From an uncultured Acidobacteriota bacterium (lineage in GTDB: Bacteria > Acidobacteriota > Polarisedimenticolia > J045): 64,000 bases of DNA. Numbering within the stretch: the stretch's first letter is position 1; each line of letters starts with the position of its first letter. The notes beneath the pieces were generated by a model that worked only from the letters and a program-made list of their open reading frames with translations, searched no databases and was not told the origin of the DNA. Both the position numbers and the translations under genes were made by a program. Below, piece after piece: positions 1-64,000 of this stretch. Location: positions 791,013 through 855,012 of the forward strand of contig CAWDCL010000004.1 of assembly GCA_963800865.1 (NCBI GenBank), in the 5' to 3' direction.

Positions 1-200
1 GGCCAACCCCGCCGGGTCGTGCGGATGTCAGGCCAACCCCGCCGGGTCGTGCGGATGTCAGGCCGGCCCCGCCGGGTCGTGCGGATGTCAGGCCGGCCCC
101 GCCGGGTCGTGCGGATGTCAGGCCAACCCCGCCGGGTCGTGCGGATGTCAGGCCGGCCCCGCCGGGTCGTGCGGATGTCAGGCCGACCCCGCCGGGTGCG
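1..200. repeat. 30-bp tandem direct repeat, about 6.6 copies, running off the window start. Two unit variants (A = GGCCAACCCC..., B = GGCCGGCCCC...) occur in the order A-A-B-B-A-B, then a truncated copy.
   Basis: Exact reiteration of GGCC[AA/GG]CCCCGCCGGGTCGTGCGGATGTCA starting at 1, 31, 61, 91, 121, 151 and 181. There are no unique spacers, so this is not CRISPR. It sits immediately 3' of the minus-strand tsaC-like gene. Confidence 0.9.
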
Positions 201-206
201 GGGCTG

Positions 207-836
207 CTACGCGAACGGCGCCGGGTCTCCGGCCCCCTCGCGGATCACCTCGACGCCCCCCTCCGCCAGCTCCACGACCGTCGACGGTTCGACGCTGCCC
301 CAGCCACCGTCGAGGAACAGGTCGACCGCGTGTCCGACCCGCTGCTCGATCTCGTCCGGGTCGGCGAGCGGCAGATCGTCGCCCGGGAGCCGGACCGTCG
401 TCGCCAGCAGCGCCCCGCCGGCAGCGGCCGCGACCGCGCGGCAGACCGCGTTGTCCGGCACCCGCAGCCCGATCGTCTTGCGCTTGGCCAGCAGGATCCG
501 CGGCACCTCGCGCGTCGCCGGCAGGACGAAGGTGTAGGGGCCCGGCAGGTAGCGCTTCAGGATCCGGTAGGCGTGGGTGTCGACCAGCGCGTACGTGGCC
601 ACGTCCGACAGGTCGGGGACGATCAGCGAGAAGAGCTTCTTGTCCGGGTTCATCGCCTTGAGCTGCGCGATCCGGTCCAGCGCCTGGCGCGAGCCGGGCA
701 GGGCGACGAACGCGTAGCAGGTGTCGGTCGGGATCACGATCACGCCGTGGTCGGAGAGCACGCGCCCGGCGCGCTCGACCAGCCGCACCTGCGGCGTGAC
801 CGGGTGGATCTCGAAGCGCTGCCCGCCGCGGGTCAC
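207..836 (-). CDS. tsaC: L-threonylcarbamoyladenylate synthase (YrdC/TsaC/Sua5 family). The start is a GTG at 836; an alternative in-frame GTG at 887 would overlap the upstream gene by 44 nt.
   Basis: The translation contains IHPVTPQVRLVERAGRVLSDHGVIVIPTDTCYAF, LIVPDLSDVATYA and GPYTFVLPAT, which are YrdC-domain hallmarks. GAGGGA lies just upstream of the GTG at 836. Confidence 0.7.
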   Translation of the reverse strand: MTRGGQRFEIHPVTPQVRLVERAGRVLSDHGVIVIPTDTCYAFVALPGSRQALDRIAQLKAMNPDKKLFSLIVPDLSDVATYALVDTHAYRILKRYLPGPYTFVLPATREVPRILLAKRKTIGLRVPDNAVCRAVAAAAGGALLATTVRLPGDDLPLADPDEIEQRVGHAVDLFLDGGWGSVEPSTVVELAEGGVEVIREGAGDPAPFA

Positions 837-843
837 GGGTCCC

Positions 844-1846: not shown

Positions 1847-2560
1847 ATGCCGACGACTCCCAGGCCTCCCCGCTCGACCGCCGGCGCCCCCGCTCCGGCG
1901 GCGGCGCGCGCGCCGGCGATCCTCGCCGGCCTCGAGCGGCTCTACCCGGACGCCGACTGCGAGCTGGTCCACGTCGACCCGTTCCAGCTGCTGGTGGCGA
2001 CGATCCTGTCCGCCCAGACGACCGACCGGGCCGTCAACCAGGTCACGCCGGGACTGTTCGCGCGCTTTCCGGACGCCCGGACGCTGGCCGTCGCCGACCC
2101 GCTCGACCTCGAGCCGCTGATCGCCACGATCGGCCTGTTCCGCAACAAGGCGAAGTCGGTCGTCGGCGCGGCGCGGGCGCTGGTCGAACGCCACGGCGGC
2201 GCGGTTCCGCGCGAGCGCGAAGCGCTCGAAGCGCTCCCCGGCGTCGGCCGCAAGACGGCCAACGTCGTGCTCTCGACCGCCTTTCGCGAGCCGGCCCTGG
2301 CGGTCGACACCCACGTCACCCGGCTGGCCGGGAAGCTCGGCCTCTCCGCCGCGACCGACCCGCGCCGGATCGAGGACGACCTGACGCGGCTGTTCCCGCG
2401 CGAGCGCTGGGGGTTCGTCAGCCACGCCCTGATCTGGCACGGCCGCCGCGTCTGCGACGCCCGGACGCCGCGCTGCGAGGCCTGCGGCCTCGCCCCCCAC
2501 TGTCCCTCGGCCTTTCTCGCCGCGAAGCGGCCGGCCGCGAAGAAACGGAGTCCACGGTGA
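1847..2560 (+). CDS. nth: Endonuclease III (DNA glycosylase/AP lyase)
   Basis: [24 protein letters not shown] and C-terminal Cx6CxxCx5C [4Fe-4S] cluster ligands. The protein is colinear with E. coli Nth. Its stop overlaps the wecB start (GTGA). Confidence 0.9.
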
Positions 2561-3667
2561 CCCTGCGGGTGATGCTGATCGCCGGCGCGCGGCCGAACTT
2601 CATGAAGATCGCCGCGGTCCACCGCGCGCTCGTCGCGCGGCCCGCCTTTCGAGGTCAGCCTGGTCCACACCGGCCAGCACTACGACGCCGCGATGAGCCG
2701 GCTCTTCTTCGACGAGCTGGGGATCCCGGCGCCGGACGTCAACCTCGAGGTCGGCTCGGGCACGCACGCGGCGCAGACCGCCGAGATCATGAAGCGCTTC
2801 GAGCCGGTCGTGCTCGAGCGCCGGCCCGATCTCGTCGTGGTGGTCGGCGACGTCAACAGCACCGCGGCCTGCTCGATGGTGGCGAAGAAGATCCCCGGCG
2901 TCGGGCTGGCCCACGTCGAGGCCGGGCTGCGCTCGTTCGACCGCTCGATGCCCGAGGAGATCAACCGCCTCGTCACCGACGCGCTGTCGGACCTGCTCTT
3001 CACCTCCGAGCCGTCGGGGGAGCGGAACCTGCGCGCCGAGGGGATTCCGGCCGAGCGGATCGTCCCGGTCGGGAACGTGATGATCGACACCCTGCGCACC
3101 CACCTGCCGCGGGCCGCCGCGGCCGGCGCGCGCCAGCGCCTGGGCCTCCCGGAGCGGACCTACGCGCTGATGACGCTGCACCGCCCGTCCAACGTCGACG
3201 ACCCGGCCGTCTTCGGGCCGCTGATGGACGCGATCGCCGAGGTCGCGGCGCGGCTGCCGGTCGTCTTCCCGGTCCACCCCCGGACCCGCGCCACCCTCGG
3301 GCGCTGGGGGGCGGAGCGGGGCGGGATCCCGGCCGGGCTGGTCGTCCTGGACCCTCTCGGGTACCTCGACTTCCTTGGCCTGATGACCGGGGCCCGCCTG
3401 CTGATGACCGATTCCGGCGGGGTCCAGGAGGAGACGACCGCGCTCGGGATCCCCTGCCTGACGCTGCGCGAGAACACCGAGCGCCCGGTAACGGTGGAGG
3501 TGGGGACCAACCGGCTGGTCGGGCGCGACCCGGCCCGGCTGCGCGACGCGGCGTTCGAGGTCCTGGCCGGGAAGGGGCAGCGCGGGGCGCTGCCGGAGGG
3601 CTGGGACGGCCGGGCCGCGGAGCGGATCGCCGAGGCCCTGGCCGGATGGGATCGGCGACTCCGTTGA
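2557..3667 (+). CDS. wecB: UDP-N-acetylglucosamine 2-epimerase (non-hydrolysing), interrupted by a +1 frameshift near 2647-2651.
   Basis: N-terminus [31 protein letters not shown] reads in frame 1. The remainder, EVSLVHTGQHYD...HVEAGLRSFD...DSGGVQEE, reads in frame 2. Both halves are colinear with E. coli WecB, and one extra base at about 2650 separates them. Confidence 0.8.
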
Positions 3668-4833: not shown

Positions 4834-5523
4834 ATGAACTCGCTGAAGGTCCTCGCCCTCGCCACGCTGGCTATCGCGCTCGCGCCCGCCGCGTTCGCAC
4901 ACGATCCCACCAACGTGTACGACCCGGCCGTCAAGGTGGTCTCGACGGTGGAGAATCAGTACCTGTACACGCCGCACGCCAGCGGCCGGGTATCGCTGGT
5001 CTACGTCAGCCCGACCGGCGACGGCGACCTCTTCGGCTCGACCGCCGAAGCCGCAAGCGGCTGGGGCGGATCGCTCGGGTGGGAGTTCCGCTGCGGCCAC
5101 TGGATCGGGATCGACCTCAACGCGATCTACGCCAAGCACGACATCGACGTCGGAGGGTTCGGCACGATCGGCCAGACCGCCTTCGTGCCGATCACGCTCG
5201 GACTCAACGTGCACGTGACCCCCGAGAAGAGCCCGGTCGACGTCTTCCTCGGGCCGCTGTTCGGCTACGCGATGTACGACGACCTGTCGGCCAAGGTCGA
5301 CGGCTCGACGGTGGCGATCGACGTCGACTCCAATTTCATCTACGGCCTGAACCTCGGGATCGAAGTGCCGGCGCCCCGGCACGGCTGGGCTTTCTACGCC
5401 TCGGTGAAGTACCTCGTGACCGAGTACTACGGGAGCCTGACGGTGGACGGCGCGGGGATGGACAACGTGGGTGTCGACGTCGACCCGTGGATCGCCCAGG
5501 CGGGAATCGCCTTCCGCTACTGA
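4834..5523 (+). CDS. Outer-membrane beta-barrel protein, a paralogue of the 3864..4559 gene
   Basis: Signal peptide MNSLKVLALATLAIALAPAAFA, and the protein ends ...IAFRY. RBS GGAGACG precedes the ATG. The architecture is the same as the upstream gene. Confidence 0.7.
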   Translation: MNSLKVLALATLAIALAPAAFAHDPTNVYDPAVKVVSTVENQYLYTPHASGRVSLVYVSPTGDGDLFGSTAEAASGWGGSLGWEFRCGHWIGIDLNAIYAKHDIDVGGFGTIGQTAFVPITLGLNVHVTPEKSPVDVFLGPLFGYAMYDDLSAKVDGSTVAIDVDSNFIYGLNLGIEVPAPRHGWAFYASVKYLVTEYYGSLTVDGAGMDNVGVDVDPWIAQAGIAFRY

Positions 5524-5554
5524 TACCGACCGCGCCGCACGGCATCGTGCTCGA

Positions 5555-5589
5555 GGGCCGGGACCCGCGTCCCGGCCCTTCGCTTTTCG
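5555..5589 (+). terminator. Rho-independent terminator
   Basis: Stem GGGCCGGGAC, loop ccgc, stem GTCCCGGCCC, followed by TTCGCTTTTCGG. Confidence 0.6.
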
Positions 5590-5605
5590 GGCCCGCTTGG
5601 TCATC

Positions 5606-5785
5606 ATGGCGGGCGAGATGTGCCCCCCCTCCCAGCCGTCCCCGCTCCCGCCGGCGCCGCTCCCCGCCGAGCGGGCGATCCGGACCTGCCCCAACTGCGG
5701 CCGCGAGCTGGCCGAGCGGAAGTGCAAGCTCTTCTGCGAAACCTCCGGTTGCGGCTACTACCTCAGCTGCGCCGACTACTACTGA
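5606..5785 (+). CDS. Small zinc-ribbon protein (59 aa), function unknown
   Basis: Proline-rich N-terminus followed by CPNCG...CKLFCETSGCGYYLSC, which gives four or more Cys ligands. Confidence 0.4.
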   Translation: MAGEMCPPSQPSPLPPAPLPAERAIRTCPNCGRELAERKCKLFCETSGCGYYLSCADYY

Positions 5786-5795
5786 GCGCCCCCCG

Positions 5796-6308
5796 ATGCT
5801 GCTGACGCTCCACCTGCTGCTGGCGGTCGTCCCGGGGCTGCTCGCCCTCGCCGCCGCCGTCGCGCTGGCGGCGGGGATCGTGCGCGGGCGCCGGGAGCTG
5901 TTCGCGCGGGGCCTCGCGCTGCTGCTGGGCGCCGCGGCGTGCGCCGTGCCCGCAACCCTGACCGGGTGGCCGGCCTGGGGCGCGGTCGCCTTCGCGGACG
6001 GCTACTCGGCGGCGCATGCCGAAGCTCACCGCACCGCCGGCCTGTTCGCGGCCGGTGCGGCGGTCCTTGCCGCCGCCGTCGCCTGGCGGGCCCGCAGCCG
6101 GATGAAGGCGCGGGGCGGGGTCAGCCGGGCACTTGCGCTGGTCACCGCGCTGGTGGCGGCGTTCGCGGCGCTGCTCGGCGCCTGGGCGGTCGGCTCCGGC
6201 TGGCAGATCCGCCGCCCCGAACTGCGGCACTACGAGGCGCGCACCAACGAGCTGCCGGTGGAGCGGGGGACGCCGCGCGTCGGGAGCGGCCCGCCGCCCC
6301 AGGACTGA
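5796..6308 (+). CDS. Integral membrane protein (about 4 TM helices), hypothetical
   Basis: The ATG lies 10 nt after the previous stop. The product has Ala/Leu-rich hydrophobic segments separated by RR/K loops. Confidence 0.5.
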   Translation: MLLTLHLLLAVVPGLLALAAAVALAAGIVRGRRELFARGLALLLGAAACAVPATLTGWPAWGAVAFADGYSAAHAEAHRTAGLFAAGAAVLAAAVAWRARSRMKARGGVSRALALVTALVAAFAALLGAWAVGSGWQIRRPELRHYEARTNELPVERGTPRVGSGPPPQD

Positions 6309-13233: not shown

Positions 13234-13288
13234 CGGTTGGCGGCATACGACCGCCGGTCCGGGCCCCCAGCGGCGGTCCGGGCCGGCG

Positions 13289-14037
13289 CTAGCCTCCCCG
13301 GACGAGAGCGTCCGGGACCTCGTACCGCTCGTCTTCTCCGAGCTTCACGACGGTGAGATCACCCGTGCGCGTGAAGGTCAGCGGGCCGGTCGAATCCGAC
13401 GCCACGGGATCGCCCTTGACGAACAGGACGCGGCGCACGAGGCCGCCGGGGCCGTGCACCTCGACCGTGGCGGTGCCGTCGAAGCCGCGGCGGGTGACGA
13501 AGGCCTCGCACTCCTGCGGCTTCGTCTCGAACGGCGGCACGCACGGGATCTTGGCCGAGGCGTGGAAGGAAGTGCCCGGGACGAGCGCGTCCTTCGAGGC
13601 TGCCGTCGGCGCGAGCGCCTGGCCGGTCACGCCGAGGGTCAGCGTGTAGTTGCTCGACTCGTTGCGGCGCGCGGCGGGGCGCATCAGGTAGACGCGGACC
13701 GTGTAGTCGCCGTCGGTCGGGGAGCATGCCCTTGAAGTCCGCGCCGCTGTCGCCGACGAACATCGCGACGTCCGAGCTGCCCGGCGGGAGCACGTTGAAA
13801 TAGTTCTGCGGGTTGGACTTCTTCAGCGCTACGACCAGCGTCTGGCCGGCCCCCGCGCGCAGGACGTAGTCGACGATCTGGTCACCCTTCAGGGCGCCCT
13901 GGATCGTGGCGCTGCTCGCGCCCGGCTTGAAGTGGACCGTTTCCTTGCGGATCTGCTGCGCCGTGGCCGGAACGGCGAGCGCCAGCAGGACCGCGACCGT
14001 CCCGATCGTCATCGACATCGATCTCATCTCGCCACCT
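13289..14037 (-). CDS. Secreted hypothetical protein, interrupted by a frameshift near 13718-13726 (a CCCC run on the coding strand)
   Basis: RBS GGGAGGTGG precedes the ATG at 14037. Signal peptide MRSMSMTIGTVAVLLALAVPATAQQ. The N-terminal part is in the 13359..14267 frame and the C-terminal part (TDGDYTVRVYLMRP...) is in the 13289..13684 frame. Confidence 0.55.
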
Positions 14038-19281: not shown

Positions 19282-19320
19282 GATTCGGACCGGCCGGGGC
19301 TGGACCGTGGCAACCGGTCG

Positions 19321-46520: not shown

Positions 46521-46521
46521 G

Positions 46522-46899: not shown

Positions 46900-46969
46900 C
46901 GCGTGAAAGTGCCCCCCCGGGGCGCGGGCTCCATTCGGGCGCCCCGGGGGGGCACTTTCACGCGTCAGC
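46895..46969. terminator. Bidirectional intrinsic terminator: a 31-bp perfect inverted repeat with a 13-nt loop. Both convergent stop codons are inside the stem.
   Basis: GCTGACGCGTGAAAGTGCCCCCCCGGGGCGC ... GCGCCCCGGGGGGGCACTTTCACGCGTCAGC. The TGA of the + gene is at 46897-46899, and the TGA of the - gene is the complement of 46965-46967. Confidence 0.7.
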
Positions 46970-47693
46970 CTCCGGGCGCGAGCTGGACGGTTAGGACCGG
47001 CCGATCTTCGCACGGTGCTTCTGGCTGGTAGGTGAGTTGAATCGCCGTTCCCTGGACGGTGATCGTGGTGAGGCTGACCGTCTCGGCTTCGTCGCGATGC
47101 ATGCAGGGGGAGTAGGGGCCGCGGTCGGGGTGGTGGCTGCGGTGGAAGGCATCGAGCGCCGCGCGCGTGATCCCGCCGTGCTGAGCGGCGACGCGGGCGA
47201 GCGTGCCGCGACGGGAGCGGGCGACGCCGTCGGCGTCGCGGCCCGATGACGTCAAGGGAAGGGCGGCGGCGTCGAGTGGGAACGCCTCGATCGATTCGCC
47301 GTCCCAGCGCAGGGCGCGCGGCGCCTCGCCCACGCCGAAGAGGGCCAGCGTGAACGGCTGATAGCGCGCGAGGTCGGCGTGGGAGAGGGCCTCCCCGGCG
47401 GCCTCGACGGTCGTCGAACCTCCCAGCCCCAGCACCAGCAGCCCGCGGCTGATCGGCGGCCGGTCCAGCGGGAAGGGGTGGTCGCGGAACAGGTTCAGCA
47501 GGCAGGCCGCGACGCCCCGCTCGTTGACGAAGGCCCATGTCCCGCCGGCCTCCCCGTCGCGCGGCGCGACGAAGTGGAGGCCCGCGGCCGAGTCGATCCG
47601 CGGCGGCTCCGCCGGGCGGCGCGAGCGCCGCTCGTCGCGGTTGAAGAAGACCGCGTAGCCGTCCGGCTCGACGATCCAGCTGAGGGTGCACAT
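46965..47693 (-). CDS. NRDE-family protein (TANGO2-like, DUF833)
   Basis: MCTLSWIVEPDGYAVFFNRDE is the family-defining N-terminus. Confidence 0.7.
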   Translation of the reverse strand: MCTLSWIVEPDGYAVFFNRDERRSRRPAEPPRIDSAAGLHFVAPRDGEAGGTWAFVNERGVAACLLNLFRDHPFPLDRPPISRGLLVLGLGGSTTVEAAGEALSHADLARYQPFTLALFGVGEAPRALRWDGESIEAFPLDAAALPLTSSGRDADGVARSRRGTLARVAAQHGGITRAALDAFHRSHHPDRGPYSPCMHRDEAETVSLTTITVQGTAIQLTYQPEAPCEDRPVLTVQLAPGG

Positions 47694-47806
47694 GGCGCGG
47701 CGGGAGTATGCCTGAAACGGGGCAGCACCGAAGTCGGCGAAACGATAGGCGCCAAAGTCGGGGGCCGAGTGCTGGGCCCACCGGCTGACGGCGAGTCCCT
47801 GGAGGC

Positions 47807-48289
47807 GTGATGGATCCCGCGATCCTGCTGCTGATCGTCGTCTTCGTCCTGGCGCCGAGCTTCGGCATGTTCATGCTCGCCGCGGCCCGCACGCCGGCGC
47901 TGCACCGCGAGGTCGTGCGGGCGCTGCGCGAGACCGGCCGCGCCGGAGGTCCGGCCTACGACGACGGGGCGCTCGCGGGCTGGGTTCCGTGGCGCGTCCC
48001 GCCCGGCCTCGAGGAGGTCTACGCCGAACCCGAGCACGCCGGGGGCGAGCCGGTACGCAACGCCGTTGCCCTGTGGCGCGCCAACCGCCGTCTCGCCTTC
48101 GTCATGCTGGCCGCGCTGGCGATCGACGCCGTGCTGCTGGCGCCTGGTCGTGCTCTGGCTGGCGCGCGCGCTGACGCTCAGTGGTGCCGGCGCAGCAGCC
48201 GCCCGAGCGACGCGACCAGCAGCACCGCGACCAGCACCGGCCCGAACGGCTGGTCGAGCAGGATCGCCGCCGCGAACGCGACCAGGTAG
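47807..48289 (+). CDS. Hypothetical small membrane protein. The 3' end is uncertain (it may stop near 48174); it is convergent with znuB and overlaps it.
   Basis: Hydrophobic N-terminus MMDPAILLLIVVFVLAPSFGMFMLAAA and a second TM segment LAFVMLAALAIDAVLLA. Beyond about 48180 the translation looks like antisense of znuB. Confidence 0.3.
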   Translation: MMDPAILLLIVVFVLAPSFGMFMLAAARTPALHREVVRALRETGRAGGPAYDDGALAGWVPWRVPPGLEEVYAEPEHAGGEPVRNAVALWRANRRLAFVMLAALAIDAVLLAPGRALAGARADAQWCRRSSRPSDATSSTATSTGPNGWSSRIAAANATR

Positions 48290-48966
48290 CAGACGAGCGC
48301 CACCCCGACGCTCCCGATCAGCGTCTTCTTCCAGCCCGGCGCGAAGCGGAAGGCGATCCAGGGCGGCACGAAGACCAGCGCGAAGGCGGCGAAGACGCCG
48401 ATCGCCGTCGCCGCGAAGGCCAGCGTCACCGCGACCAGCAGGTCGAAGACGACGTCGTGGTGCGGGGTGGCCAGGCCGTTGGCGCGGAAGAAGTCCGGGA
48501 AGAAGCGCCCCAGCAGGAGCCGGCGCGAGATCCAGGGGAGGACCGCCGCGGTCAGCAGCACCAGCGAGCCCAGCCCCTCGAGGTGCGGCAGGCCGGTGAA
48601 GTAGAGCTGCCCCTGGATCAGCGCGCGCGACAGGTCGTCGCCGTGCGTCGAGTTGGCGGCGGCGATCAGCGCGACGCTCCAGCCGAAGAGGATCATCACC
48701 GCGTAGGCGTCGTTGCCGGTCCGGCCGACCAGCGCCTTGGCCGCCGCGGCCAGCGCCGCCGCGACCAGCGCGACCAGCAGCACCGGCTCGAGGAACATCC
48801 CGCCCAGCACCACGCCGGCCGCCGCCGCCTGCGCCAGGCCGAGCGCCGCCAGCCACTCCTCGCGCAGCCGGATGTAGCAGCCGAGCACGGGCAGCAGCAG
48901 CGCCAGCGCCAGCCCGTTCAGGAACGGCAGCAGGAACAGCCGGTCGAAGACGAGCCCGATGTTCAC
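48178..48966 (-). CDS. Metal ABC transporter permease (ZnuB/TroC family)
   Basis: GTG start overlapping the upstream stop. There are 7-8 TM helices and the characteristic LAQAAAAGVVLG segment. Confidence 0.8.
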   Translation of the reverse strand: MNIGLVFDRLFLLPFLNGLALALLLPVLGCYIRLREEWLAALGLAQAAAAGVVLGGMFLEPVLLVALVAAALAAAAKALVGRTGNDAYAVMILFGWSVALIAAANSTHGDDLSRALIQGQLYFTGLPHLEGLGSLVLLTAAVLPWISRRLLLGRFFPDFFRANGLATPHHDVVFDLLVAVTLAFAATAIGVFAAFALVFVPPWIAFRFAPGWKKTLIGSVGVALVCYLVAFAAAILLDQPFGPVLVAVLLVASLGRLLRRHH

Positions 48967-49529
48967 GCGCCCACCTCGACGATCGTCGTCGCGATCCGCT
49001 CCAGGAACTCGTGCTCGTGCGTCACGACCAGCACGCCGCGCTGCTCGCGCCAGGCCAGCAGCAGGTCGCCCAGCGTCTCGATCGTCCCGGGGTCCATGTT
49101 GTTGGTCGGCTCGTCGAGGTAGATCAGGTCGGCCGGGCTGCCGAGCGCGGCCCAGACCTGCAGCAGCTGGAACTGCCCGCCCGACAGCCGGTCGACGCGC
49201 GGGTCGAGCAGCGGCTGCAGCGCGGGCGGTGCGTCGCGGTCCCTGGCGCGCGTCAGGTGGAGCAGCTCGTGCCCCGTGATCGGCATCTCCGGCAGCTTCA
49301 CCGGCCGTTGCGTCTGGACCATCACGCGCGTTCCCGCACGCCGCACGACCGAGCCGGAGAAGACGCGCACGGAGCCGATGATCGCGCGCAGGATCGTCGA
49401 CTTGCCGCACCCGTTTGGACCGGTCAGGCCGACGATCTCGCCCGCGCGGACCGCGAACGAGAGGGGGCCGACCACGGGCTCTCCGTAGCCCGCGACCAGC
49501 CCCTTCACATCGAGCAGCGGCTCGCTCAC
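48963..49529 (-). CDS. Metal ABC transporter ATP-binding protein (ZnuC/TroB family, short form)
   Basis: GPNGCGKST, LSGGQFQ, LIYLDEPTNNMD, VVTHE. The GTG start overlaps the znuA-like stop. Confidence 0.8.
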   Translation of the reverse strand: MSEPLLDVKGLVAGYGEPVVGPLSFAVRAGEIVGLTGPNGCGKSTILRAIIGSVRVFSGSVVRRAGTRVMVQTQRPVKLPEMPITGHELLHLTRARDRDAPPALQPLLDPRVDRLSGGQFQLLQVWAALGSPADLIYLDEPTNNMDPGTIETLGDLLLAWREQRGVLVVTHEHEFLERIATTIVEVGA

Positions 49530-50417
49530 GAGCGCGAGCTTGCCACCGCAACGACCCACTTGTCGACGAGGTCGAGGTACGCCGTCGCGTCGCCGTCGAT
49601 CGCGACCTCGAGCGGGAGCTGCTGCGCCGTCCAGCCGAGTTCCTTCGCCACCCGGTTCGGGCCGTCCGAGGACTGGAAGACCGCGTAGAGGATCACCCCC
49701 TTCTTTCCCGAGAGGGTCGTCACGAGGTCCTTGATCGACGACGCGGTCGGGGGGATCCCGGGAAGCGGCTCGATGTAGCCCAGCACCGGGACGCCCAGCA
49801 GGCTCGCGAGGTAGTTGCCGTCCTTGTGATAGAAGACGATCCCCGGCGCTCCCGCCGCCCGCTGCTTCCACCCCGGAACGCGCGCGGCGACCGCTTTCCC
49901 GAACGCCGCGGCGTTGGCCGCGAACTCCGCCTTGTGGGCCGGGTCGAGCGCCGCCATCCGCTCCGCGAGCGCGGTCGCGATCGTCGCCATCCGTTCCGGG
50001 TCGAGATAGAAGTGAGGATTGCCGAGCGGGTGGACGTCCCCCTTGGCCCGGTCGGCCGCGCCCCCCTTCTCGATCAGGTCGACCTGCGCCGCTCCCTCGA
50101 AGTAACCCGGCTGGCCCGCGAGGATCTTCGGGTTGTTGCGCACTGGACAGCGCCGAGGGAAGCCAGCCGGTCTCCAGTTCGGCGCCGACCGCCACCAGCA
50201 GGTCGGCGTTGCGCAGCGCGATCATCATGCTCGGCTTGGCCAGCAGGTAGTGGGCGTCGCGGTCGGGCGGAGCGAGGACGGTGACCTTGACCTGGTCGCC
50301 GCCGACCGTGCGCGCCAGCATCCCCATGCTGGAGGTCGTGGCGACGACGTTGAGCCTGGCCTCGGCGGGCAGGGCGAGGGCGGCGGCGAGGATCGTGACA
50401 CAGGCGAGTCTGCTCAT
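49526..50417 (-). CDS. Periplasmic metal-binding protein (ZnuA/TroA family), with a +1 frameshift near 50143-50150
   Basis: Signal MSRLACVTILAAALALPAEA. N-terminus LNVVATTSSMGMLARTVGG...LRNADLLVAVGAELE in one frame. The C-terminus NPKILAGQPGYFEG...GDVHPLGNPHFYLDP is in the next. Confidence 0.8.
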
Positions 50418-50428
50418 GGCCGGCCCCC

Positions 50429-51847
50429 TCAGAACTTGTGCGCGCCGTGCGCGCCGAGGCTGAACTGCAGCTGGATGGTGTAGGCGTCGACCTTGGTCGG
50501 GGTGCCGTCCACCGTGACGTCGATCCGCTCGTACTGCGCGCGGCAGCGGGAGAACTCGGTCGGATTGAATGTCATGTCTCCGGACCACCGGGAGGTCGAG
50601 CCGAAGTTCTCCGTCACGCCGCCTCCGCGGACCTGGTTGGAGGAGCCGGCCTGGTCGTAGCGGACGCCGGCGGTCCAGCGCTTCGCGAAACCGTAGACCG
50701 CCTGGACGTAGTACGCGTCCTGGTCGAAGGTGAACGGGACGGGCGGGACCGACTCGCCGTCCACGGCCACCAGGTCGAGGTCCCGGTTGCGGGCGATGTA
50801 CTCCCCCTGGAGCGTCAGGTCGCCCTGGCCGAACTCCTTCGGCGAGTCGTACTTGTAGACGACGTCGATCCCCCAGAAGTCGGTCGAGCCCTCGTAGGCG
50901 TGGTCGACCTCGCCGTCGCCGTCCTGGTCCTGCAGCTCCTGGTGGGTCCGCCCCGTCCCGTAGAAGCCGCCGATCTGGAGCGCGTTGCTGTACCCGACGT
51001 CCGGCGCGACCTTCACGAACAGGTCGAACAGGCGCGGCCCGGCGTGGTTCTCGAACCAGGGCGTGTCGTCGCTCTCGCCGTAGTAGGAGGAGACCCCGGG
51101 GTTCACCCCCTGCGCCGCCTCGATCCCGATCCGCGTGTAGAAGGGGAGCGGCGGCAGCCAGTTGAGCTGGACGCCGGCCTCGTTCAGCGCGCCGCCGAAG
51201 ATCAGCTGGTAGGGGAGCGCGGTGTCGACGAAGTCCCACTGGTGCGGGTGCTGCGAGTTCTGGTAGCCGATGCCGCTGTAGAACTGGCCGACCTTGAGCT
51301 GGAACCCGGGGATGAACTTCCGGGTCTGCGCGTAGGCCTCCTCGACCTCGATCCCGTCGCCCGAGATCGCGAGGATCGCCCAGAGGTCGAAGTAGGGGTC
51401 GACGGTGCCGCTGAAGGAGAGCTCCGTCTCGCGCAGCGAGAATCCTTCCGCGGTCGCCTCGGGTTCGACGCCGGAGAGCGGGAAGCCGTCGGCTGCGGCC
51501 AGGATCTCGGCGCCTGCGCCGTCGACATCGTCCCGGTAGAAGACGCCGTCGAAGATCACGGCGATCGACGGATTGAAGGCCGACGGGTTGGAGACGGAGT
51601 CACTGCTGCTCCCCCCGACCAGGTTGTAGGGGACGAGCCCGACCGGGTCGAGCGGGCCGCGCGGCCCCGTAGCGGTGCTCGGCGGCTGTGCCGCGGTCGG
51701 GGCCGGGGGAGGGGATGGATCCTGCGGAGGAGAGGGGGCCGGCGGCGCCGGAACGGCCTCCTCCGGAGGGGTCTCGGCCCGGCTCACGTCCGCGGCGCAC
51801 GTCGCCGCGAACAGGAGCGCGAGCGGGATCGCGATCGCTCTTCTCAT
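50429..51847 (-). CDS. Outer-membrane beta-barrel protein (porin-like) with a His-rich C-terminal tail, co-located with the znu-like operon
   Basis: Signal peptide MRRAIAIPLALLFAATCAA, followed by a Pro-rich linker. The protein ends ...QFSLGAHGAHKF with a terminal Phe, and it contains many alternating beta strands. Confidence 0.6.
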   Translation of the reverse strand: MRRAIAIPLALLFAATCAADVSRAETPPEEAVPAPPAPSPPQDPSPPPAPTAAQPPSTATGPRGPLDPVGLVPYNLVGGSSSDSVSNPSAFNPSIAVIFDGVFYRDDVDGAGAEILAAADGFPLSGVEPEATAEGFSLRETELSFSGTVDPYFDLWAILAISGDGIEVEEAYAQTRKFIPGFQLKVGQFYSGIGYQNSQHPHQWDFVDTALPYQLIFGGALNEAGVQLNWLPPLPFYTRIGIEAAQGVNPGVSSYYGESDDTPWFENHAGPRLFDLFVKVAPDVGYSNALQIGGFYGTGRTHQELQDQDGDGEVDHAYEGSTDFWGIDVVYKYDSPKEFGQGDLTLQGEYIARNRDLDLVAVDGESVPPVPFTFDQDAYYVQAVYGFAKRWTAGVRYDQAGSSNQVRGGGVTENFGSTSRWSGDMTFNPTEFSRCRAQYERIDVTVDGTPTKVDAYTIQLQFSLGAHGAHKF

Positions 51848-51927
51848 GTCCGTTGTCCTCGTTCCGATCCTGAAAAATCCGCCCGCGCGTCCGGGGGGAC
51901 GCGCGGCGACACGAAGCACGCAAGGGC

Positions 51928-52194
51928 TCAGGCGAGCGGCGGGCTGCGGGGATCGGGAAGAGCGAAGAGCGGCGGGAAGCCGGGGAGCGACGCCTCGGAG
52001 GCCCGGACCGGCACCGCGCCGGCGTCCGGCGCGGGGACCGCGGCGGCATCCGGGAGGACGACGCCGTGGTGCGACGCGATCTGGCAGACGGGACACGCGA
52101 AGTGCTCGTCGGCGAGGCCGTGGTGGTGCACGAACGGGGCGAGGATCGTGACGGCGAGCGCCAGCACGCCGAGCAGCGCGATCCAGGACGTCAT
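51928..52194 (-). CDS. Small membrane-anchored protein with HHH and CxxC motifs (88 aa), a putative metal-binding protein
   Basis: MTSWIALLGVLALAVTILAPFVHHHGLADEHFACPVCQIASHHGV. It lies immediately upstream of the OMP gene. Confidence 0.45.
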   Translation of the reverse strand: MTSWIALLGVLALAVTILAPFVHHHGLADEHFACPVCQIASHHGVVLPDAAAVPAPDAGAVPVRASEASLPGFPPLFALPDPRSPPLA

Positions 52195-52351
52195 CCGTTC
52201 CCGCACGAGGGGCTTCACGGGGCGGAGGCTAGCGGGGTGGTGCGGGGCTGTCAAGAATCGGCGAGGTGACAGAGGCCGGGGGCGACCGCCCGCGCGCCGG
52301 GTACAATCGGCACCCTCCGCGGGAGAGCCGTTGGAAGCGCGCATCAAGGCG

Positions 52352-53185
52352 ATGGTCCCGGTCCTGGTCTGGCCGGTCGCGATGGTCACCGCCGTCGCGG
52401 TGACCGCCTGGGGCCTGTCGATCGGCCGCGGGCCGCTGGTCTACATCCTGGCCTACCTGGGGCTCGCCGGGGCGCTCTTCGCCCTCGAGCGCCGGGTCCC
52501 GCACGAGCCGGCCTGGCTCGAGAACGACGGCCAGGTCTTTCCCGACTTCGCGCACACGGCCGTCTCCAAGTCCTTCGCCTGGGCGCTGATCGTCTTCGGC
52601 GGGTCGGCCGGGCTGTTCGACGCGCTGCGCAGCGGCGCCGGGATCTGGCCGGAGCGCTGGCCGCTCGTGGCGCAGGTCGCGCTGGGCCTGGTGATCGCCG
52701 AGTTCGGCTTCTACTGGGGGCACCGGCTGTCCCACGAGTGGCCGTTCCTGTGGCGTTTCCACGCGGTGCACCACAGCGTGACCCGGCTCTGGTTCTTCAA
52801 CACCGGCCGCTTCCACTTCGTCGACACGCTGCGCGCGATGGCGTTCGGTCTGCCCCTGCTGTTCGTCGCCGGCGCGCCGGAACTCGTCTTCACGTGGGTC
52901 AGCGCGATCACGTCCTTCATCGGCCTGCTGACGCACTGCAACGTCGCGACCCGCACGCCGGGGCTCAACCGGGTCTTCGTCACCCCCGGGCTGCACCGCT
53001 GGCACCACTCGCGGGACCCGCGCGAGGGGAACCGCAACTACGGCGAGAATCTCGCGCTCTGGGACCAGCTCTTCGGCACCTTCCTCGACAAGCCCGTCCG
53101 CCCGCCGCGCGACATCGGGATCGACGAGCCGATGCCGGCCGGCTTCCTCGGCCAGCTCGCGGCGCCGTTCCGCGCGCGGGCCTGA
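52352..53185 (+). CDS. Fatty-acid hydroxylase / sterol desaturase superfamily membrane protein
   Basis: His boxes HRLSHE, HAVHH and HRWHH. Confidence 0.8.
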   Translation: MVPVLVWPVAMVTAVAVTAWGLSIGRGPLVYILAYLGLAGALFALERRVPHEPAWLENDGQVFPDFAHTAVSKSFAWALIVFGGSAGLFDALRSGAGIWPERWPLVAQVALGLVIAEFGFYWGHRLSHEWPFLWRFHAVHHSVTRLWFFNTGRFHFVDTLRAMAFGLPLLFVAGAPELVFTWVSAITSFIGLLTHCNVATRTPGLNRVFVTPGLHRWHHSRDPREGNRNYGENLALWDQLFGTFLDKPVRPPRDIGIDEPMPAGFLGQLAAPFRARA

Positions 53186-53201
53186 GCGGAAGGCGGGCCG
53201 G

Positions 53202-54260
53202 ATGCCGCGCGCCGCCGTCCTCGCCGCCCCGTTCGACCTTCGGCTCGAAGAGCGGGCCCGGCCGGCACTCGCGCCCGGCGACGCCCGCGCCCGCGTGCGG
53301 CGGGCCGGCATCTGCGGGACCGACGTCGCGATCTACCGCGGCGACTACCGCGTGCCGCTCCCGCTGGTCCTCGGCCACGAGTGGTCGGGCGAGGTGATCG
53401 AGGTCGCGCGCCCCGCCGACGAATCCTGGCTCGGCCGGCGCGTCACGGCGGAGATCAATCGCCACTGCGCCGCGCGTGGCGCGGCGGAACTCTGCCCGCT
53501 TTGCGCGCGCGCGCTTCCGACCCACTGCGCGACGCGGACGGTGACGGGGATCGCCGGCGCGGACGGCGCGTTCGCGGAGGAGATCGTCGTCCCGGCCGGG
53601 ACGCTGGTCGGGCTGCCGGAGTCGCTCGACGACGACGCGGCGGTGCTGGTCGAGCCGTTCGCGGCGGCGCTGCAGGCCTTCGCGCTGTCGCCGGTCACGC
53701 CGGGCGAGCTGGTCGTGGTGCTGGGCGCCGGCCGGCTCGGAGCGCTGATCGCGCTGGTCGCGGAGCGGCTCGGCGCGCGGGTCGTCGCGGTCGGGCGCGA
53801 GCGGACGCGGCAGCGGCTCGCGCCCCTCGGATTCGCGGTCGAGATCGCCGACATTTCCACGCGGGTCGCGCCGGACGACCCGCTCGCCGCCGCGCCGTCG
53901 GCGCTGCTCGACCGCGTCCGGTCCCTGTCGGACGGCTGCGGCGCGGACCTCGTCGTCGAAGCGACCGGCAGCGCGGAGGGGCTCGCGACGGCGCTCGACC
54001 TGGTCCGGCCGCGCGGCACGGTGGCGCTGAAATCGACGCCGGGTCAGCCCGTGGCGCGCTTCGACCTGACGCGGGCGGTCGTCAACGAGGTGCGGCTGCA
54101 GGGCTCGCGCTGCGGCTCGTTCGCCGAGGCGCTGGCCTTCCTCGAGCGCCACCCGCTGCCGCTCGACGCCCTGATCGAGGCCTCGTTCCCGCTGGCGGAG
54201 GCGGGGCGGGCGCTGGACGAGGCCGCGCTCGGCGGGAAGTTCGTGCTGGAGTGCGGGTAG
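53202..54260 (+). CDS. Zinc-dependent alcohol dehydrogenase (MDR; sorbitol/threonine-dehydrogenase-like)
   Basis: GICGTDVAIY...GHEWSGEV with a structural zinc Cys cluster, and GAGRLGALIALVAERLGA as the Rossmann segment. Confidence 0.8.
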   Translation: MPRAAVLAAPFDLRLEERARPALAPGDARARVRRAGICGTDVAIYRGDYRVPLPLVLGHEWSGEVIEVARPADESWLGRRVTAEINRHCAARGAAELCPLCARALPTHCATRTVTGIAGADGAFAEEIVVPAGTLVGLPESLDDDAAVLVEPFAAALQAFALSPVTPGELVVVLGAGRLGALIALVAERLGARVVAVGRERTRQRLAPLGFAVEIADISTRVAPDDPLAAAPSALLDRVRSLSDGCGADLVVEATGSAEGLATALDLVRPRGTVALKSTPGQPVARFDLTRAVVNEVRLQGSRCGSFAEALAFLERHPLPLDALIEASFPLAEAGRALDEAALGGKFVLECG

Positions 54261-54289
54261 AATCTCCTTCCCCCACCGAAGGACGATCG

Positions 54290-55042
54290 ATGCGAATCCG
54301 ACCGAAGGCTCTTACGTTCCTCCTCTGCGCGGTAATCGCCGCCGCTCCCGCTGCCCCCGCCGCGTTTGCCGAGCAGATGCCGGCCGCCGCGCCTCCGGCC
54401 CACTCCGAGACCAGCTGGCAGGTCCCCGAGCTGTTCGCCTTTCACGAGGTGATCGCCACGATCTGGCACGAGGCCTGGCCGGCCAAGGACATCGCGCAGC
54501 TCAAGGCGCTGACGCCGCAGGTGAAGGCCGGCGCGGCCAAGGTCGCGGGGGCGCAGCTCCCCGGCATCCTGCGCGACAAGCAGGCGGCGTGGGACGAGGG
54601 GGTCGCGGGGCTGCAGCGGACGGTCACCGACTACGAGACCGCCGCCGCGTCGGGCGACGACGCGCGCCTGCTGGCCGCTGCCGAAGCGCTGCACGCGCAG
54701 TTCGAGAAGCTGGTGCGCACGATCCGCCCGCTGACGAAGGAGCTCGACGCCTTCCACCAGGTCCTCTACCCGCTCTACCACCACCAGCTCGATCCCTACG
54801 ACGCGGCGGCGGTGAAGGCCACCGTCCCGCAGCTGCAGGAGAAGATGGCGGCGCTGGCCAAGGCTCCGCTGCCGGAGCGATTCGCGCCGAAGACCGGCGC
54901 CTATGACGCGGCCCGCGCGGAACTCGGCCGCGAGGTCGACGCCTTCGCCGCCGCGGTGGCGACCGGCGACCCGGCGAAGGCCAAGGCCGCGGCCGAGACG
55001 ATGCACTCGGCCTACGTCAAGCTCGAGGCCGTCCTCGGCTGA
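54290..55042 (+). CDS. Secreted hypothetical protein (helical, 250 aa)
   Basis: AAGGA RBS. Signal peptide MRIRPKALTFLLCAVIAAAPAAPAAFA. Confidence 0.55.
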   Translation: MRIRPKALTFLLCAVIAAAPAAPAAFAEQMPAAAPPAHSETSWQVPELFAFHEVIATIWHEAWPAKDIAQLKALTPQVKAGAAKVAGAQLPGILRDKQAAWDEGVAGLQRTVTDYETAAASGDDARLLAAAEALHAQFEKLVRTIRPLTKELDAFHQVLYPLYHHQLDPYDAAAVKATVPQLQEKMAALAKAPLPERFAPKTGAYDAARAELGREVDAFAAAVATGDPAKAKAAAETMHSAYVKLEAVLG

Positions 55043-62047: not shown

Positions 62048-63000
62048 GCGCGCCGGACACGCTCGTCGTCGTCAACCGGAACGCCGGCACGGCGGCGCGC
62101 CGGCGGGCGCTCCGCGCGGCGCTGGAGGCGTGCGCGGCGGAGGCCGCGGGGGCGGGAGGGAACGCTCCCGGTCGCGCCGGCTTCGCGGTGCGGGAGACCG
62201 CGACCTACGACGGAGGGCTCGCGGCCGCCCGCGAGGCGGCGCGCGACGGAGTCCGCCGCGTGGTGGCGGTCGGCGGCGACGGGACGCTGCAGGCCGTCGC
62301 GGCCGGGCTCGTCGCCGGCCAGCCCGACCCGGCGGCGCGCCCGCTGCTGGGACTCGTACCCGCCGGGAGGGGCAACGACCTCGCGCGCGCGCTCGACCTG
62401 CCGTTCGAGCCGCGCGCCGCGCTGGCCCTGGCCCTTACCGGGGAGCGGACGCTCGCGCTCGACCTCGGCCGCCTCGTCGCCGACGGGCGCGAGGTGATCT
62501 TCGTCAACGCCGCGGGGCTCGGGTTCGACGGCGACGTAGCGGTGCGGGCCCGGCGCCTGCCGCTGCACGGGTTCCCGGCCTACGCCCTCGCCGCGCTCGG
62601 CTCGATGGCGGCCCGCCCCGGGCCGTGGGAGATGGACGCCTCGATCGACGGCCGGTCCTCCCGCGGCGCGGTGATCCTCTTCACGGTGGCCAACGGCAGC
62701 ACCACCGGCGGCGGCTTCGTGATGGCCGCCGCGGCCCGGCCGGACGACGGGCTGCTCGACTACGCCCGGGTCGGACCGTCGAGCCGGGCCGAGGTGCTGC
62801 GCTTCCTCTGGCGGGCGTCCCGCGCCGGGCTGGGCGAGGAGCCCCGCTTCGAGTTCGGCCGTTTCCGGCGGCTTACGGCGAGTTTCACGCCCGGGATCCC
62901 GATTCACGCCGACGGCGAGATCGTGGCGACCGGAGCCGGCGAGGTGACGATCGATCTCCTGCCGGCGGCCCTGCGCGCGATCGTCCCCGGGCCGGAGTAA
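62044..63000 (+). CDS. Diacylglycerol-kinase-family lipid kinase (YegS/DagK-like)
   Basis: The GTG start overlaps the previous stop. VVAVGGDGTLQAVAAGL is the GGDGT motif, and PAGRGNDLARAL follows. Confidence 0.7.
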   Translation: MSAPDTLVVVNRNAGTAARRRALRAALEACAAEAAGAGGNAPGRAGFAVRETATYDGGLAAAREAARDGVRRVVAVGGDGTLQAVAAGLVAGQPDPAARPLLGLVPAGRGNDLARALDLPFEPRAALALALTGERTLALDLGRLVADGREVIFVNAAGLGFDGDVAVRARRLPLHGFPAYALAALGSMAARPGPWEMDASIDGRSSRGAVILFTVANGSTTGGGFVMAAAARPDDGLLDYARVGPSSRAEVLRFLWRASRAGLGEEPRFEFGRFRRLTASFTPGIPIHADGEIVATGAGEVTIDLLPAALRAIVPGPE

Positions 63001-63024
63001 ACTCCCGGGTCCTCCGGAGGCCCG

Positions 63025-64000
63025 ATGACCGCCGATCCCGCCGCGACGCGCGCCCTGCCGGCCCCGCCGCCGGCCTACCGCTGGGCCGTGCTGGTCGTGC
63101 TCAGCCTCGCGATGTTCGGGAACTACTACGTCTACGACTCGATCAGCCCGCTGGCCGACGTGCTCGTCAAGCAGCTGCAACTTCACCGACGACAACATCG
63201 GCCTGCTCAACGCGATCTACAGCTTCCCGAACATCATCATGGTGCTGATCGGCGGGATGATCATCGACCGCATCGGCGTCAAGAAGTCGACCTTCCTGTT
63301 CTCGATGCTCTGCGCGCTCGGGGCGGTCCTCACCGCGCTCACGCCCACCCTGCCGATGATGGCGGCGGGCCGCCTGCTGTTCGGGCTCGGCGCCGAATCG
63401 CTGATCGTCGCGATCACCACCGCGCTGGCCCAGTGGTTCCGCGGCAAGGAGCTCTCCTTCGCTTTCGGCATCAACCTGACGATCGCGCGCCTCGGCTCGT
63501 TCGCCGCGCTCAACTCGCCGACCTGGGCGCACGACGCCTACCAGGGCTGGCAGGGGCCGCTGCTGATCGCGACCGTCTTCGGCTTCGTGTCGCTGATCGC
63601 GGGGGCGGTCTACTGGATCATGGAATCGGGCGCGGTGAAGCGCTACGACATGGCCGCCGCCGGCTCGTCCGACAAGGTCGTGTTCGGCGACATCCGCGCC
63701 TTCGGCCGCTCCTACTGGTTCGTGGTCGCGCTGTGCGTGACCTTCTACTCCGGGATCTTCCCGTTCCAGACCTTCGCCGTGAAGTTCTTCCAGGACGCGC
63801 ACGGCGTGTCGCGCGAGGAAGCCGGCTTCCTGTCGTCGATGCTGACGCTGTTCGCCATGATCTGCACGCCGCTGTTCGGGCTGCTCGTCGATCGCGTCGG
63901 CAGGCGGACGCAGTTCATGATGGCCGGCTCGCTGCTGCTGGTGCCGGTCTACCTGATCATGGCCTACAGCAGCATCTCCCTCTACGTGCCGATGGCGATC
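63025..64000 (+). CDS. MFS transporter, 3'-partial (runs off the window end), with a +1 frameshift near 63175-63181
   Basis: N-terminus AVLVVLSLAMFGNYYVYDSISPLADVLVKQL in frame 1. NFTDDNIGLLNAIYSFPNIIMVLIGGMIIDRIGVKKS...GRLLFGLGAES continues in frame 2 through 64000. Confidence 0.7.
   Translation, partial: MTADPAATRALPAPPPAYRWAVLVVLSLAMFGNYYVYDSISPLADVLVKQLQLHRRQHRPAQRDLQLPEHHHGADRRDDHRPHRRQEVDLPVLDALRARGGPHRAHAHPADDGGGPPAVRARRRIADRRDHHRAGPVVPRQGALLRFRHQPDDRAPRLVRRAQLADLGARRLPGLAGAAADRDRLRLRVADRGGGLLDHGIGRGEALRHGRRRLVRQGRVRRHPRLRPLLLVRGRAVRDLLLRDLPVPDLRREVLPGRARRVARGSRLPVVDADAVRHDLHAAVRAARRSRRQADAVHDGRLAAAGAGLPDHGLQQHLPLRADGD

Follow-up and report, generated by a model that had tools for sequence, protein, structure and literature searches.

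Genes whose coding continues in an adjacent reading frame are known from programmed recoding, from decaying genomes and from sequencing error. At prfB-type sites the shift is conserved across orthologs and is marked by the motif CUU UGA together with an upstream Shine-Dalgarno-like element. Genome decay in Mycobacterium leprae and Sodalis glossinidius brings nonsense mutations, deletions, insertion-sequence expansion, relaxed selection and lowered coding density. For long-read assemblies, published descriptions of nanopore data stress homopolymer indels and associate reduced coding density with low coverage and low G+C (PMC9262707; PMC12313526). R10.4 consensus sequences free of frameshifts need about 40-fold coverage (PMC9262707), and the Microflora Danica (MFD) catalogue relies exclusively on Nanopore reads, with Flye as the assembler and a single round of Medaka polishing (PMC12313526).

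We analyzed a 64-kb stretch of DNA (hereafter the window) with 73% G+C, reading the coding frame from a frame plot of G+C at third codon positions, which resolves sharply at this composition. The plot revealed same-strand frame switches, with neither a stop nor a start, at all of the places described below, and each switch was then checked via homology or sister DNA, with coordinates given as window positions. Seventeen events disrupt 12 of about 58 genes. They include 12 one-base insertions, one two-base insertion, two one-base deletions (both in brnT) and one complex site, and the frame effect is +1 in 14 of 17 events and -1 in three. Insertions outnumber deletions 13 to 2 (two-sided binomial p~0.007), and the indel error rate is about 1 base per 4,000 with a strong skew to single-base insertions. 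The original prediction had listed 15 frame disruptions, every one of which was recovered by frame plot, together with homology or sister DNA, within about 10 bases of its predicted position, and two further +1 events beyond that list, at 48142 and 48164, lie in a small membrane-protein gene. Other frameshift candidates flagged by the frame plot, at the start of nth (~1919), where the HhH-GPD domain begins where expected, and at vapB/vapC (~44214), which are two separate genes, proved to be ordinary gene boundaries, and the same-frame gene runs at 10220, 10988 and 21314 belong to separate Pfam families and are not frameshifts. Rfam and tRNA scans of the window found no RNA.

The first group of broken genes begins with wecB, encoding UDP-GlcNAc 2-epimerase (2557-3667, + strand), which carries one extra base at 2644-2648 that shifts the frame by +1. 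The window reads GGCCCGCCTTTCG at this site versus GGCCC-CTTTTCG in L087 (JGI, 96% nucleotide identity), and the repaired protein covers positions 1-362 of 366 of TIGR00236 in one stretch and aligns without gaps to sisters of 369 aa. A gene for a secreted protein (14027-13292, - strand) has one extra base at 13717-13721 (+1) that is absent from L085, a Logan short-read contig of 98.6% nucleotide identity, and from L084; its sisters measure 245 aa, and one of them (P0195) is 99.6% identical to the repaired protein. At 17537 in a lipoprotein gene (~17422-18364, + strand), an extra T turns ATG into ATTG (+1) and splits the signal peptide from the mature part. This T is absent from L082, L084 and the MEGAHIT contigs L089 and L090, and the sister proteins are 313 aa long, begin with MRTPLPPALAAAALLASFAGGC and possess the signal peptide. 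The brnT toxin gene (19820-19540, - strand) lacks one base at 19696 (frame -1), where the window has GAGTG-GAAGG versus GAGTGCGAAGG in L084, and a second base at 19645 (again -1), where L084 has one base more. The BrnT_toxin profile is matched over positions 1-36 in the unrepaired sequence and over its full 77 positions only after both repairs, and L084 encodes an intact BrnT of 93 aa. Finally, recQ (28575-26484, - strand) has one extra base at 26991-26993 (+1) within the RQC domain, which Pfam finds split over two frames (positions 11-49, then 45-108). The window reads CGACAGCGCTG versus CGACA-CGCTG in L086 (MEGAHIT), and the remaining indels between the two are all compensated.

Three neighboring genes further along are broken in the same manner. 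The site in the ribose-type sugar-binding lipoprotein gene (28710-29710, + strand) is a two-base insertion and not a one-base deletion: alignment to L092 (JGI, 96% nucleotide identity) places two extra bases (GG) at 28824-28825 with a frame effect of -1 (CCCGCCGGCCGTCC in the window versus CCCGCC--CCGTCG in L092); the sisters are 332 aa with a signal peptide and 97-98% identical. The gene for a two-domain sugar ABC ATPase (29707-31258, + strand) carries one extra base at 30349-30352 (+1; GTGCGGTG versus CTGC-GTG in L083, MEGAHIT, 95% nucleotide identity), and its repaired protein aligns with the AraG and RbsA models over about 490 residues, unbroken across the junction, with a sister (P0232) of 507 aa. 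The GH38 alpha-mannosidase gene (32221-35489, + strand) is hit twice, by an extra G at 32451 that changes GCC to GCGC (+1; GGGCGCACG versus GGGC-CACG in L081, JGI, 96.0% nucleotide identity over 4557 nt) and by an extra C at 32753 that changes GCG GCC to GCGCGCC (+1, again versus L081). These two sites are the only uncompensated indels relative to L081. The GH38 sister protein P0121 is intact at 1088 aa, and the repaired N-terminus is covered by about 120 homologues of roughly 1070-1090 aa.

Further along the window, metH (43742-40228, - strand) has one extra base at 40489 (+1; CACGCCGCGG versus CAC-CAGCGG in L001) and a second +1 shift at 41095-41107, in the linker before the activation domain. 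The latter is a complex site at 41103, where the window is 8 bases shorter than L001, a +1 combined with a 9-base in-frame difference. The L001 metH open reading frame is intact at 1177 aa, and tblastn with its product places residues 1-880 in frame -3, 882-1090 in frame -1 and 1092-1177 in frame -2 of the window. The gene for a small membrane protein (47807-48179, + strand) carries an extra G at 48142 (GCC to GCGC, +1; GGCGCCTGG versus GGC-CCTGG in L001) and, by the L001 alignment, a second extra G at 48164 (+1), and its stop codon is that of L001 once both sites are repaired. In a gene for a ZnuA/AztC-type metal-binding protein (50420-49529, - strand), a net +1 shift falls within 50137-50161, given as a range because the stretch is divergent. 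Pfam ZnuA is matched at 1-70 and 88-258 in two frames, versus one frame in the L001 ortholog, and the repaired protein covers 1-267 of 277 positions of the AztC model in one stretch. An MFS transporter gene (63025 to beyond 64000, + strand) has an extra C at 63178 that turns CTG AAC into CTGCAAC (+1) and is absent from L093 and L094 (JGI, 91-92% nucleotide identity); positions 1-292 of MFS_1 are found only in the repaired protein.

Sister proteins were obtained through exact cluster look-ups; a chimeric query of eight concatenated junction regions returned only long proteins and no near-identical sisters. For wecB and the secreted protein, the alignments from that query were nevertheless usable.

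The original prediction had named comparison with a sister genome as a check, and this comparison found all 17 sites uninterrupted in sisters of 86-99% nucleotide identity over the aligned stretch, these sisters being other strains or populations and not the same DNA, such that a strain-specific mutation would look alike at any single site. L001 is the sister covering both metH sites, znuA, 48142 and 48164, and L084 the one covering both brnT sites. Twelve of the sisters are short-read contigs from JGI, MEGAHIT and Logan; across their combined length of about 38 kb, called-gene tables and alignments reveal no private frame breaks. Three sisters with Flye-style contig names that are syntenic with the window (L001, L082 and L084, of which L001 belongs to a Nanopore-only MFD MAG) together carry nine private +1 insertions, and zero deletions, in genes left unbroken in the window. 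L001 has one at its own position 8617. L082 has four, at window-equivalent 11855, 21941, 21959 and 22641, of which the last three scramble a P-domain that Pfam finds in the window and that is called in the product of the short-read contig L088, which keeps the window's frame throughout the stretch. L084 has four as well, at 13833, 13973, 18919 and 20989, where L085, L088-L091 or L082 agree with the window. An automated count of stop-less frame switches within 12 bases of a junction was too noisy, flagging ordinary boundaries in short-read contigs, and was left out as a rate estimate in favor of the called-gene tables and alignments. Assemblies also disagree on the length of a non-coding G run that directly precedes a gene start (20325-20330): the window has 6 bases, L082 has 5 and four MEGAHIT contigs have 7. 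Nanopore consensus sequences typically under-call long homopolymers.

Judged by these alignments, the breaks are private to the window's assembly, and other long-read-style assemblies carry different ones. The breaks are almost certainly consensus errors, because every close relative found, including the 12 short-read contigs, has the genes intact. Records at NCBI and ENA assign the window's own gene fragments to one contig of 3,269,294 bases (3.27 Mb); its size, its deposition there and the sisters together suggest that the window's sequencing platform was long-read. Very probably, then, as far as sequence comparison can tell, the frame breaks represent residual consensus errors of a long-read-only MAG, most likely produced by Nanopore sequencing with Flye and Medaka, rather than mutations of the organism, in which the genes are almost certainly intact. 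The preference for consensus or assembly indel error over biology in the original prediction is thus borne out by sisters that are uninterrupted at every site and by long-read-style contigs that have other private breaks.

The spectrum of these errors bears on how they arose. Most often a G or C has been added next to a wobble position, turning GCC or GCG into GCGC or CTG into CTGC. Several breaks had been placed in G/C runs such as CCCC or CCGG, which is true of some sites, but most resolvable events insert a G or C between two C or two G, and homopolymer runs hold only some of the errors. In four genes the residue at the junction varies from sister to sister: A or L in wecB, A or T in the secreted protein, M, L or I in the lipoprotein, and C or V in the ABC ATPase. 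Because several errors fall exactly on residues that are variable among close strains, we propose that many of them may mark substitutions between co-assembled strains, at which the consensus step would emit both alleles in series, which suggests strain variants collapsed by that step. Adjacency to the third codon position (about 10 of 13 insertions versus two thirds expected by chance) and a mismatch within 3 bases (about half of the indels versus about a quarter expected) are both statistically weak trends. We looked for a published description of an insertion-biased GCC-to-GCGC error mode and found none, and a search for a motif or methylation site shared by the breaks returned nothing beyond generic GC-rich context. 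Random homopolymer length errors of the long-read platform, without strain mixtures, would be a rather doubtful source. The classic error of nanopore consensus sequences is the homopolymer indel (PMC9262707), and run lengths do change at some sites, namely 13717 (C3 to C4), 17537 (T to TT), 30352 (G to GG) and the run at 20325-20330. At least six resolvable events, however, separate two identical bases by an unlike one (32451, 32753, 40489, 48142, 48164 and, in the L087 alignment, 2644), and the longest runs in the window (7 bases) do not coincide with breaks. Nanopore homopolymer errors are mostly deletions, whereas the events in the window are mostly insertions. Homopolymer error and strain collapse differ in sub-mechanism only, and the breaks are an artefact under both.

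Two biological readings, both raised in the original prediction, fare worse against the same evidence. Recent, genuine pseudogenization would mean massive frameshift inactivation of about 20% of the strain's genes, which we regard as improbable even though the breaks do exist in the sequence as given and number one or two per gene, as in very young pseudogenes. It is best matched by brnT, where the two -1 lesions, separated by 51 bases, fit the loss that toxin genes commonly undergo in nature, and where the toxin-antitoxin island is variable among the sisters; these deletions could be a genuine inactivation. Against pseudogenes in general, no sister is broken at any of the 17 sites, not even the 98.6% identical short-read contig, and lesions of the same kind appear elsewhere in other long-read-style contigs and are absent from the short-read contigs. 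Nonsense mutations, large deletions and insertion sequences were not seen among the approximately 58 genes, and the remaining 46 or so genes either cover their Pfam domains completely or have sisters of full length. Nor do the downstream fragments bear the relaxed selection that unusual pseudogenization would leave: the bias of substitutions toward third positions is unaltered 3' of the breaks (third-position fractions of 0.74, 0.80 and 0.62 for the metH pieces and 0.57, 0.50 and 0.59 for the GH38 pieces), and protein identity by tblastn is 94-98%, with 94-95% versus L001 for the fragments that follow each break. Mira, Ochman and Moran reportedly found in 2001 that bacterial mutation is deletion-biased, to which the 13 insertions versus 2 deletions run opposite, and a G between two C is not produced by slippage. 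We also know of no reason for genome decay in a free-living soil acidobacterium with 73% G+C. That the extra bases are truly in the DNA, at about one insertion-type frameshift per 4 kb in well-conserved genes, is slightly more remote still; its weaker and likelier version is that only the brnT deletions are real, as ordinary toxin decay. Real extra bases would mean either an unusual, insertion-biased mutational process at G/C wobble sites or expression that tolerates some frameshifts. Programmed recoding, with a lineage that reads through its breaks by +1 ribosomal frameshifting or transcriptional slippage, as at prfB or the many +1 sites of Euplotes, is the least probable reading of all. The 14 of 17 events with a +1 frame effect could suggest a single directional mechanism, and the downstream fragments would appear, from their sequence, fully functional. 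But no shift is conserved in any relative at 86-99% nucleotide identity, all orthologs examined being single-frame, and no heptamer, stop codon or upstream Shine-Dalgarno-like element is common to the sites. None of the 17 has an in-frame stop at the shift codon, and their contexts all differ. Three events need a -1 shift, two genes need two successive shifts within 22-51 bases, and the syntenic L001, L082 and L084 carry +1 breaks in other genes instead. Recoding is already refuted in practice by this lack of conservation.

With consensus error as the preferred reading, the breaks have no biological significance, since the organism itself almost certainly has these genes whole, and the consequences are those of annotation. 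Gene calling in this stretch of a public MAG has wrongly turned about one-fifth of the genes into fragments, such as GH38, recorded with 820 aa versus 1088 aa intact, and wecB, recorded with 324 aa versus 369 aa. The truncated products are already in protein databases and can distort pseudogene counts, pathway reconstruction and completeness estimates. Users would expect a homopolymer pattern, but the spectrum here consists mostly of G or C insertions at wobble positions, often where residues vary between strains, in a genome of high G+C. If confirmed by reads, it would merit a methods note on metagenome pipelines that use Flye and Medaka.

Among described systems, the window most resembles Nanopore-only assemblies and MAGs (Sereika et al., 2022, PMC9262707; MFD, PMC12313526), in which single-base indels likewise split conserved genes into adjacent frames, and the MFD catalogue itself contains a sister genome of the window (PMC12313526). 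Residual errors of Nanopore-only data are, as here, private to one assembly, absent from short-read assemblies of that lineage and placed elsewhere in other long-read contigs. Unlike the published nanopore errors, those of the window occur at 73% G+C, are mostly insertions and most commonly add a G or C at a wobble position instead of altering run length. The resemblance to +1 frameshifting at prfB and in Euplotes lies in an essential-looking open reading frame that goes on in the +1 frame with its coding quality kept, but the sites in the window have neither conservation nor motif, and some need -1. Similarly, M. leprae and S. glossinidius share with the window a high fraction of genes interrupted by frameshifts, whereas the window bears none of the signs of decay seen in those genomes and its close relatives are intact at every site.

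Along the window, G+C content is 73%, and because the third codon position is approximately 94% G+C at such composition, a simple frame-specific G+C model (frame plot) segments coding frames very cleanly. At every position where the original prediction placed a frame break, the frame plot showed a same-strand frame switch with no stop or start, and each break was verified independently. Two unlisted +1 events in a small membrane-protein gene, at 48142 and 48164, bring the total to 17 events in 12 genes. The intact 1177 aa metH ortholog of L001, a contig from a Nanopore-only MAG, aligned by tblastn to the window in three different frames (residues 1-880, 882-1090 and 1092-1177, with identities of 98%, 94% and 95%), consistent with the predicted double break. 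Profile matches were likewise divided in recQ, whose RQC domain breaks at profile positions 45-49, and in znuA, which has positions 1-70 in one frame and 88-258 in another. Once the indel was undone, the conceptual translations ran through the junction as one continuous match to full-length curated models: TIGR00236 for wecB (1-362 of 366), AraG and RbsA over approximately 490 residues for the ABC ATPase, and AztC for znuA. Repair extended the BrnT match from profile positions 1-36 to 1-77 of 77, and the MFS_1 match of the MFS transporter from 28-292 to 1-292.

Cluster look-ups for five of the proteins returned sisters with 91-99.6% identity, and the repaired lengths equal those of the sisters (secreted protein, 245 aa; lipoprotein, 313 aa; wecB, 369 aa; ABC ATPase, 507 aa; sugar-binding protein, 332 aa) or differ by known in-frame length differences only. 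Alignment through the junction was gapless for four of the five. The exception was the sugar-binding protein, whose sisters are one residue off the trial repair because the site is a two-base insertion with a frame effect of -1; the predicted break stands there, but the predicted one-base change does not. Near 41103 in metH the break also holds, with the window 8 bases shorter than L001 rather than differing by a single base, which is what a +1 plus an in-frame difference of 9 bases gives; the in-frame difference lies in a low-complexity linker.

We then fetched sister DNA for every site and found that short-read contigs are intact at every covered site. The JGI contig L081 (96.0% identical over 4557 bases) shows uncompensated indels relative to the window at the two GH38 sites only. 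The extra base is absent for the ABC ATPase from L083 (MEGAHIT), for the secreted protein from L085 (Logan, 98.6% identical), for recQ from L086 (MEGAHIT), for wecB from L087 (JGI), for the lipoprotein from L089 and L090 (MEGAHIT), and for the MFS transporter from L093 and L094 (JGI); L092 (JGI) lacks both extra bases of the sugar-binding protein. Both metH sites, znuA, 48142 and 48164 are unbroken in L001, and BrnT is intact (93 aa) in L084, a contig with a Flye-style name. All three Flye-style-named contigs carry private +1 insertions in genes that the window has intact: L001 at its own position 8617; L082 at window-equivalent 11855, 21941, 21959 and 22641; and L084 at 13833, 13973, 18919 and 20989, where a short-read contig or L082 agrees with the window. 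Private frame breaks were found in 0 of 12 short-read contigs, and the lesions therefore track assembly, not lineage. Intergenic DNA also departs by single bases from its nearest short-read sisters, at 13265-13267 and 28599-28641 (for example, TGTGGTGG in L085 versus TGGGGG in the window), so the indel error rate is probably above the coding-frame count.

The last three L082 insertions sum to +3, and the ORF therefore remains open. The resulting M14 peptidase (L082 18052-20508, window-equivalent 21800-24251) is 822 aa, but approximately 230 of its residues are out of frame. The insertions scramble and so remove the P-domain, which Pfam finds in the window and which was also called for the product of L088, a short-read contig. 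ORF-length checks cannot see such compensated errors in high-G+C genomes.

Run length changes at only a few events: C3 to C4 (13717), T to TT (17537) and G to GG (30352). In the most frequent form, a G sits between two C bases, or a C between a pair of G bases, next to the wobble position, as in GCC to GCGC at 32451, 48142 and 48164 (and probably in znuA) and GCG-GCC to GCGCGCC at 32753; at 63178, CTG-AAC became CTGCAAC. A neighboring substitution is often present (2644, 13717, 40489 and 48164). Long homopolymers are a familiar nanopore difficulty, seen here in the non-coding G run at 20325-20330: the window has 6 G and L082 has 5, against 7 in each of four independent MEGAHIT contigs. Where several sister residues could be compared and were not all the same (four sites), the junction residue is a strain-variable position (wecB, A/L; secreted protein, A/T; lipoprotein, M/L/I; ABC ATPase, C/V), and we therefore infer that many errors arise at strain substitutions. 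Co-assembled strains would differ by substitution, in this genome mostly a wobble-base G versus C, and a consensus or polishing step may keep both alleles in series, yielding an extra base; this would account for the insertion bias. Codon-position and nearby-mismatch statistics for this origin are weak, and we found no paper describing such an error mode.

Insertions outnumber deletions 13 to 2 (binomial p~0.007), and the nine private events of the other long-read contigs are insertions without exception; bacterial indels in nature lean towards deletion. Genuine mass pseudogenisation, one fallback of the original prediction, is very unlikely given this bias, the intact sisters and breaks that follow assembly. 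Downstream fragments are conserved as much as upstream ones and keep third-position bias, with third-position shares of substitutions versus sisters, in the sister's frame, of 0.74, 0.80 and 0.62 for metH and 0.57, 0.50 and 0.59 for GH38. No nonsense codons, large deletions or insertion sequences were found in the window, and in every other gene with a Pfam match the domains are covered essentially end to end. Programmed frameshifting, the other fallback, is excluded in practice: the sites are conserved in none of the orthologs and have no common motif, three events would have to go the other way, and in each of two genes a pair of shifts within 22-51 bases would be required. The two brnT deletions are the sole events for which we would keep real mutation open, because they are unlike the rest in kind and fall in a toxin gene that sits on a variable island; were they real, they would be ordinary biology.

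The brnT/brnA toxin-antitoxin pair (19300-19820, minus strand) is flanked on one side by the HMG-lyase-like gene and on the other by a 150 aa zinc-ribbon gene. Both the window and L084 carry it, but L082 and four MEGAHIT sisters (L088-L091) do not, making it a strain-variable island. A vapB (RHH/VapB) and vapC (PIN) pair directly upstream of metH (43773-44506, minus strand) is conserved in L001; its junction, a frame-plot candidate, was rejected as a normal gene boundary. The 640 or so bases at 39572-40213 have a weak coding signal and no L001 counterpart, and include a HicB-like antitoxin ORF (39947-40207, plus strand; Pfam HicB_lk_antitox 1-59 of 123, E=3.5e-12); they are probably a third small toxin-antitoxin island, adjoining metH. 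L001 has approximately 6.9 kb there, with one ORF of approximately 2000 aa. Approximately 580 internal bases (52561-53140) of the fatty-acid-hydroxylase gene (52325-53182) also lack an L001 counterpart, and the gene is truncated or absent in L001. At 5441-6305 (plus strand), a weak coding signal occupies one frame at 5597-5782 (Cys-rich tail, faint zinc-ribbon hit) and the next at 5784-6305 (low-complexity, Pro/Ala-rich); either a further +1 break or a pair of small genes might explain this, and no homologue or sister was found to choose between them.

The window's approximately 58 protein-coding genes are of ordinary soil-bacterium types and include Sua5, a metallo-beta-lactamase fold protein, nth, wecB, outer-membrane proteins, a GH39-like protein, RibD_C, ferredoxin, HD phosphohydrolase, YkuD transpeptidase, alcohol dehydrogenases, an HMG-lyase-like protein, M14 carboxypeptidase, recQ, a ribose-type ABC transporter, GH38 mannosidase, histidine ammonia-lyase, metH, a znu/azt-type metal transporter, isocitrate/isopropylmalate dehydrogenase, a transketolase-like protein, diacylglycerol kinase and an MFS transporter. 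tRNA and Rfam scans of the window found no tRNA genes and no Rfam families.

The intact sisters and the private breaks elsewhere in long-read contigs support assembly or consensus indel error, the reading preferred in the original prediction, and with high confidence the frame breaks are an artefact, of no biological interest. Their practical relevance is modest: long-read MAGs of high-G+C soil bacteria supply truncated proteins to public databases, and fragments from the window (GH38, 820 aa; wecB, 324 aa; sugar-binding protein, 313 aa) are already recorded as proteins of one 3,269,294-base contig at NCBI and ENA. For a soil organism, a contig of several megabases suggests long-read assembly, most likely of Nanopore reads. 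L001, found in a single genome-collection scan, is a contig of 'uncultured Acidobacteriota bacterium MFD00032.bin.3.232' and is syntenic with 39229-54337 at 86-95% nucleotide identity. It belongs to a Microflora Danica MAG, and that catalogue used Nanopore reads alone, Flye for assembly and a single Medaka polishing round (PMC12313526). The same group found R10.4 consensus to be free of frameshifts only from approximately 40-fold coverage (PMC9262707).
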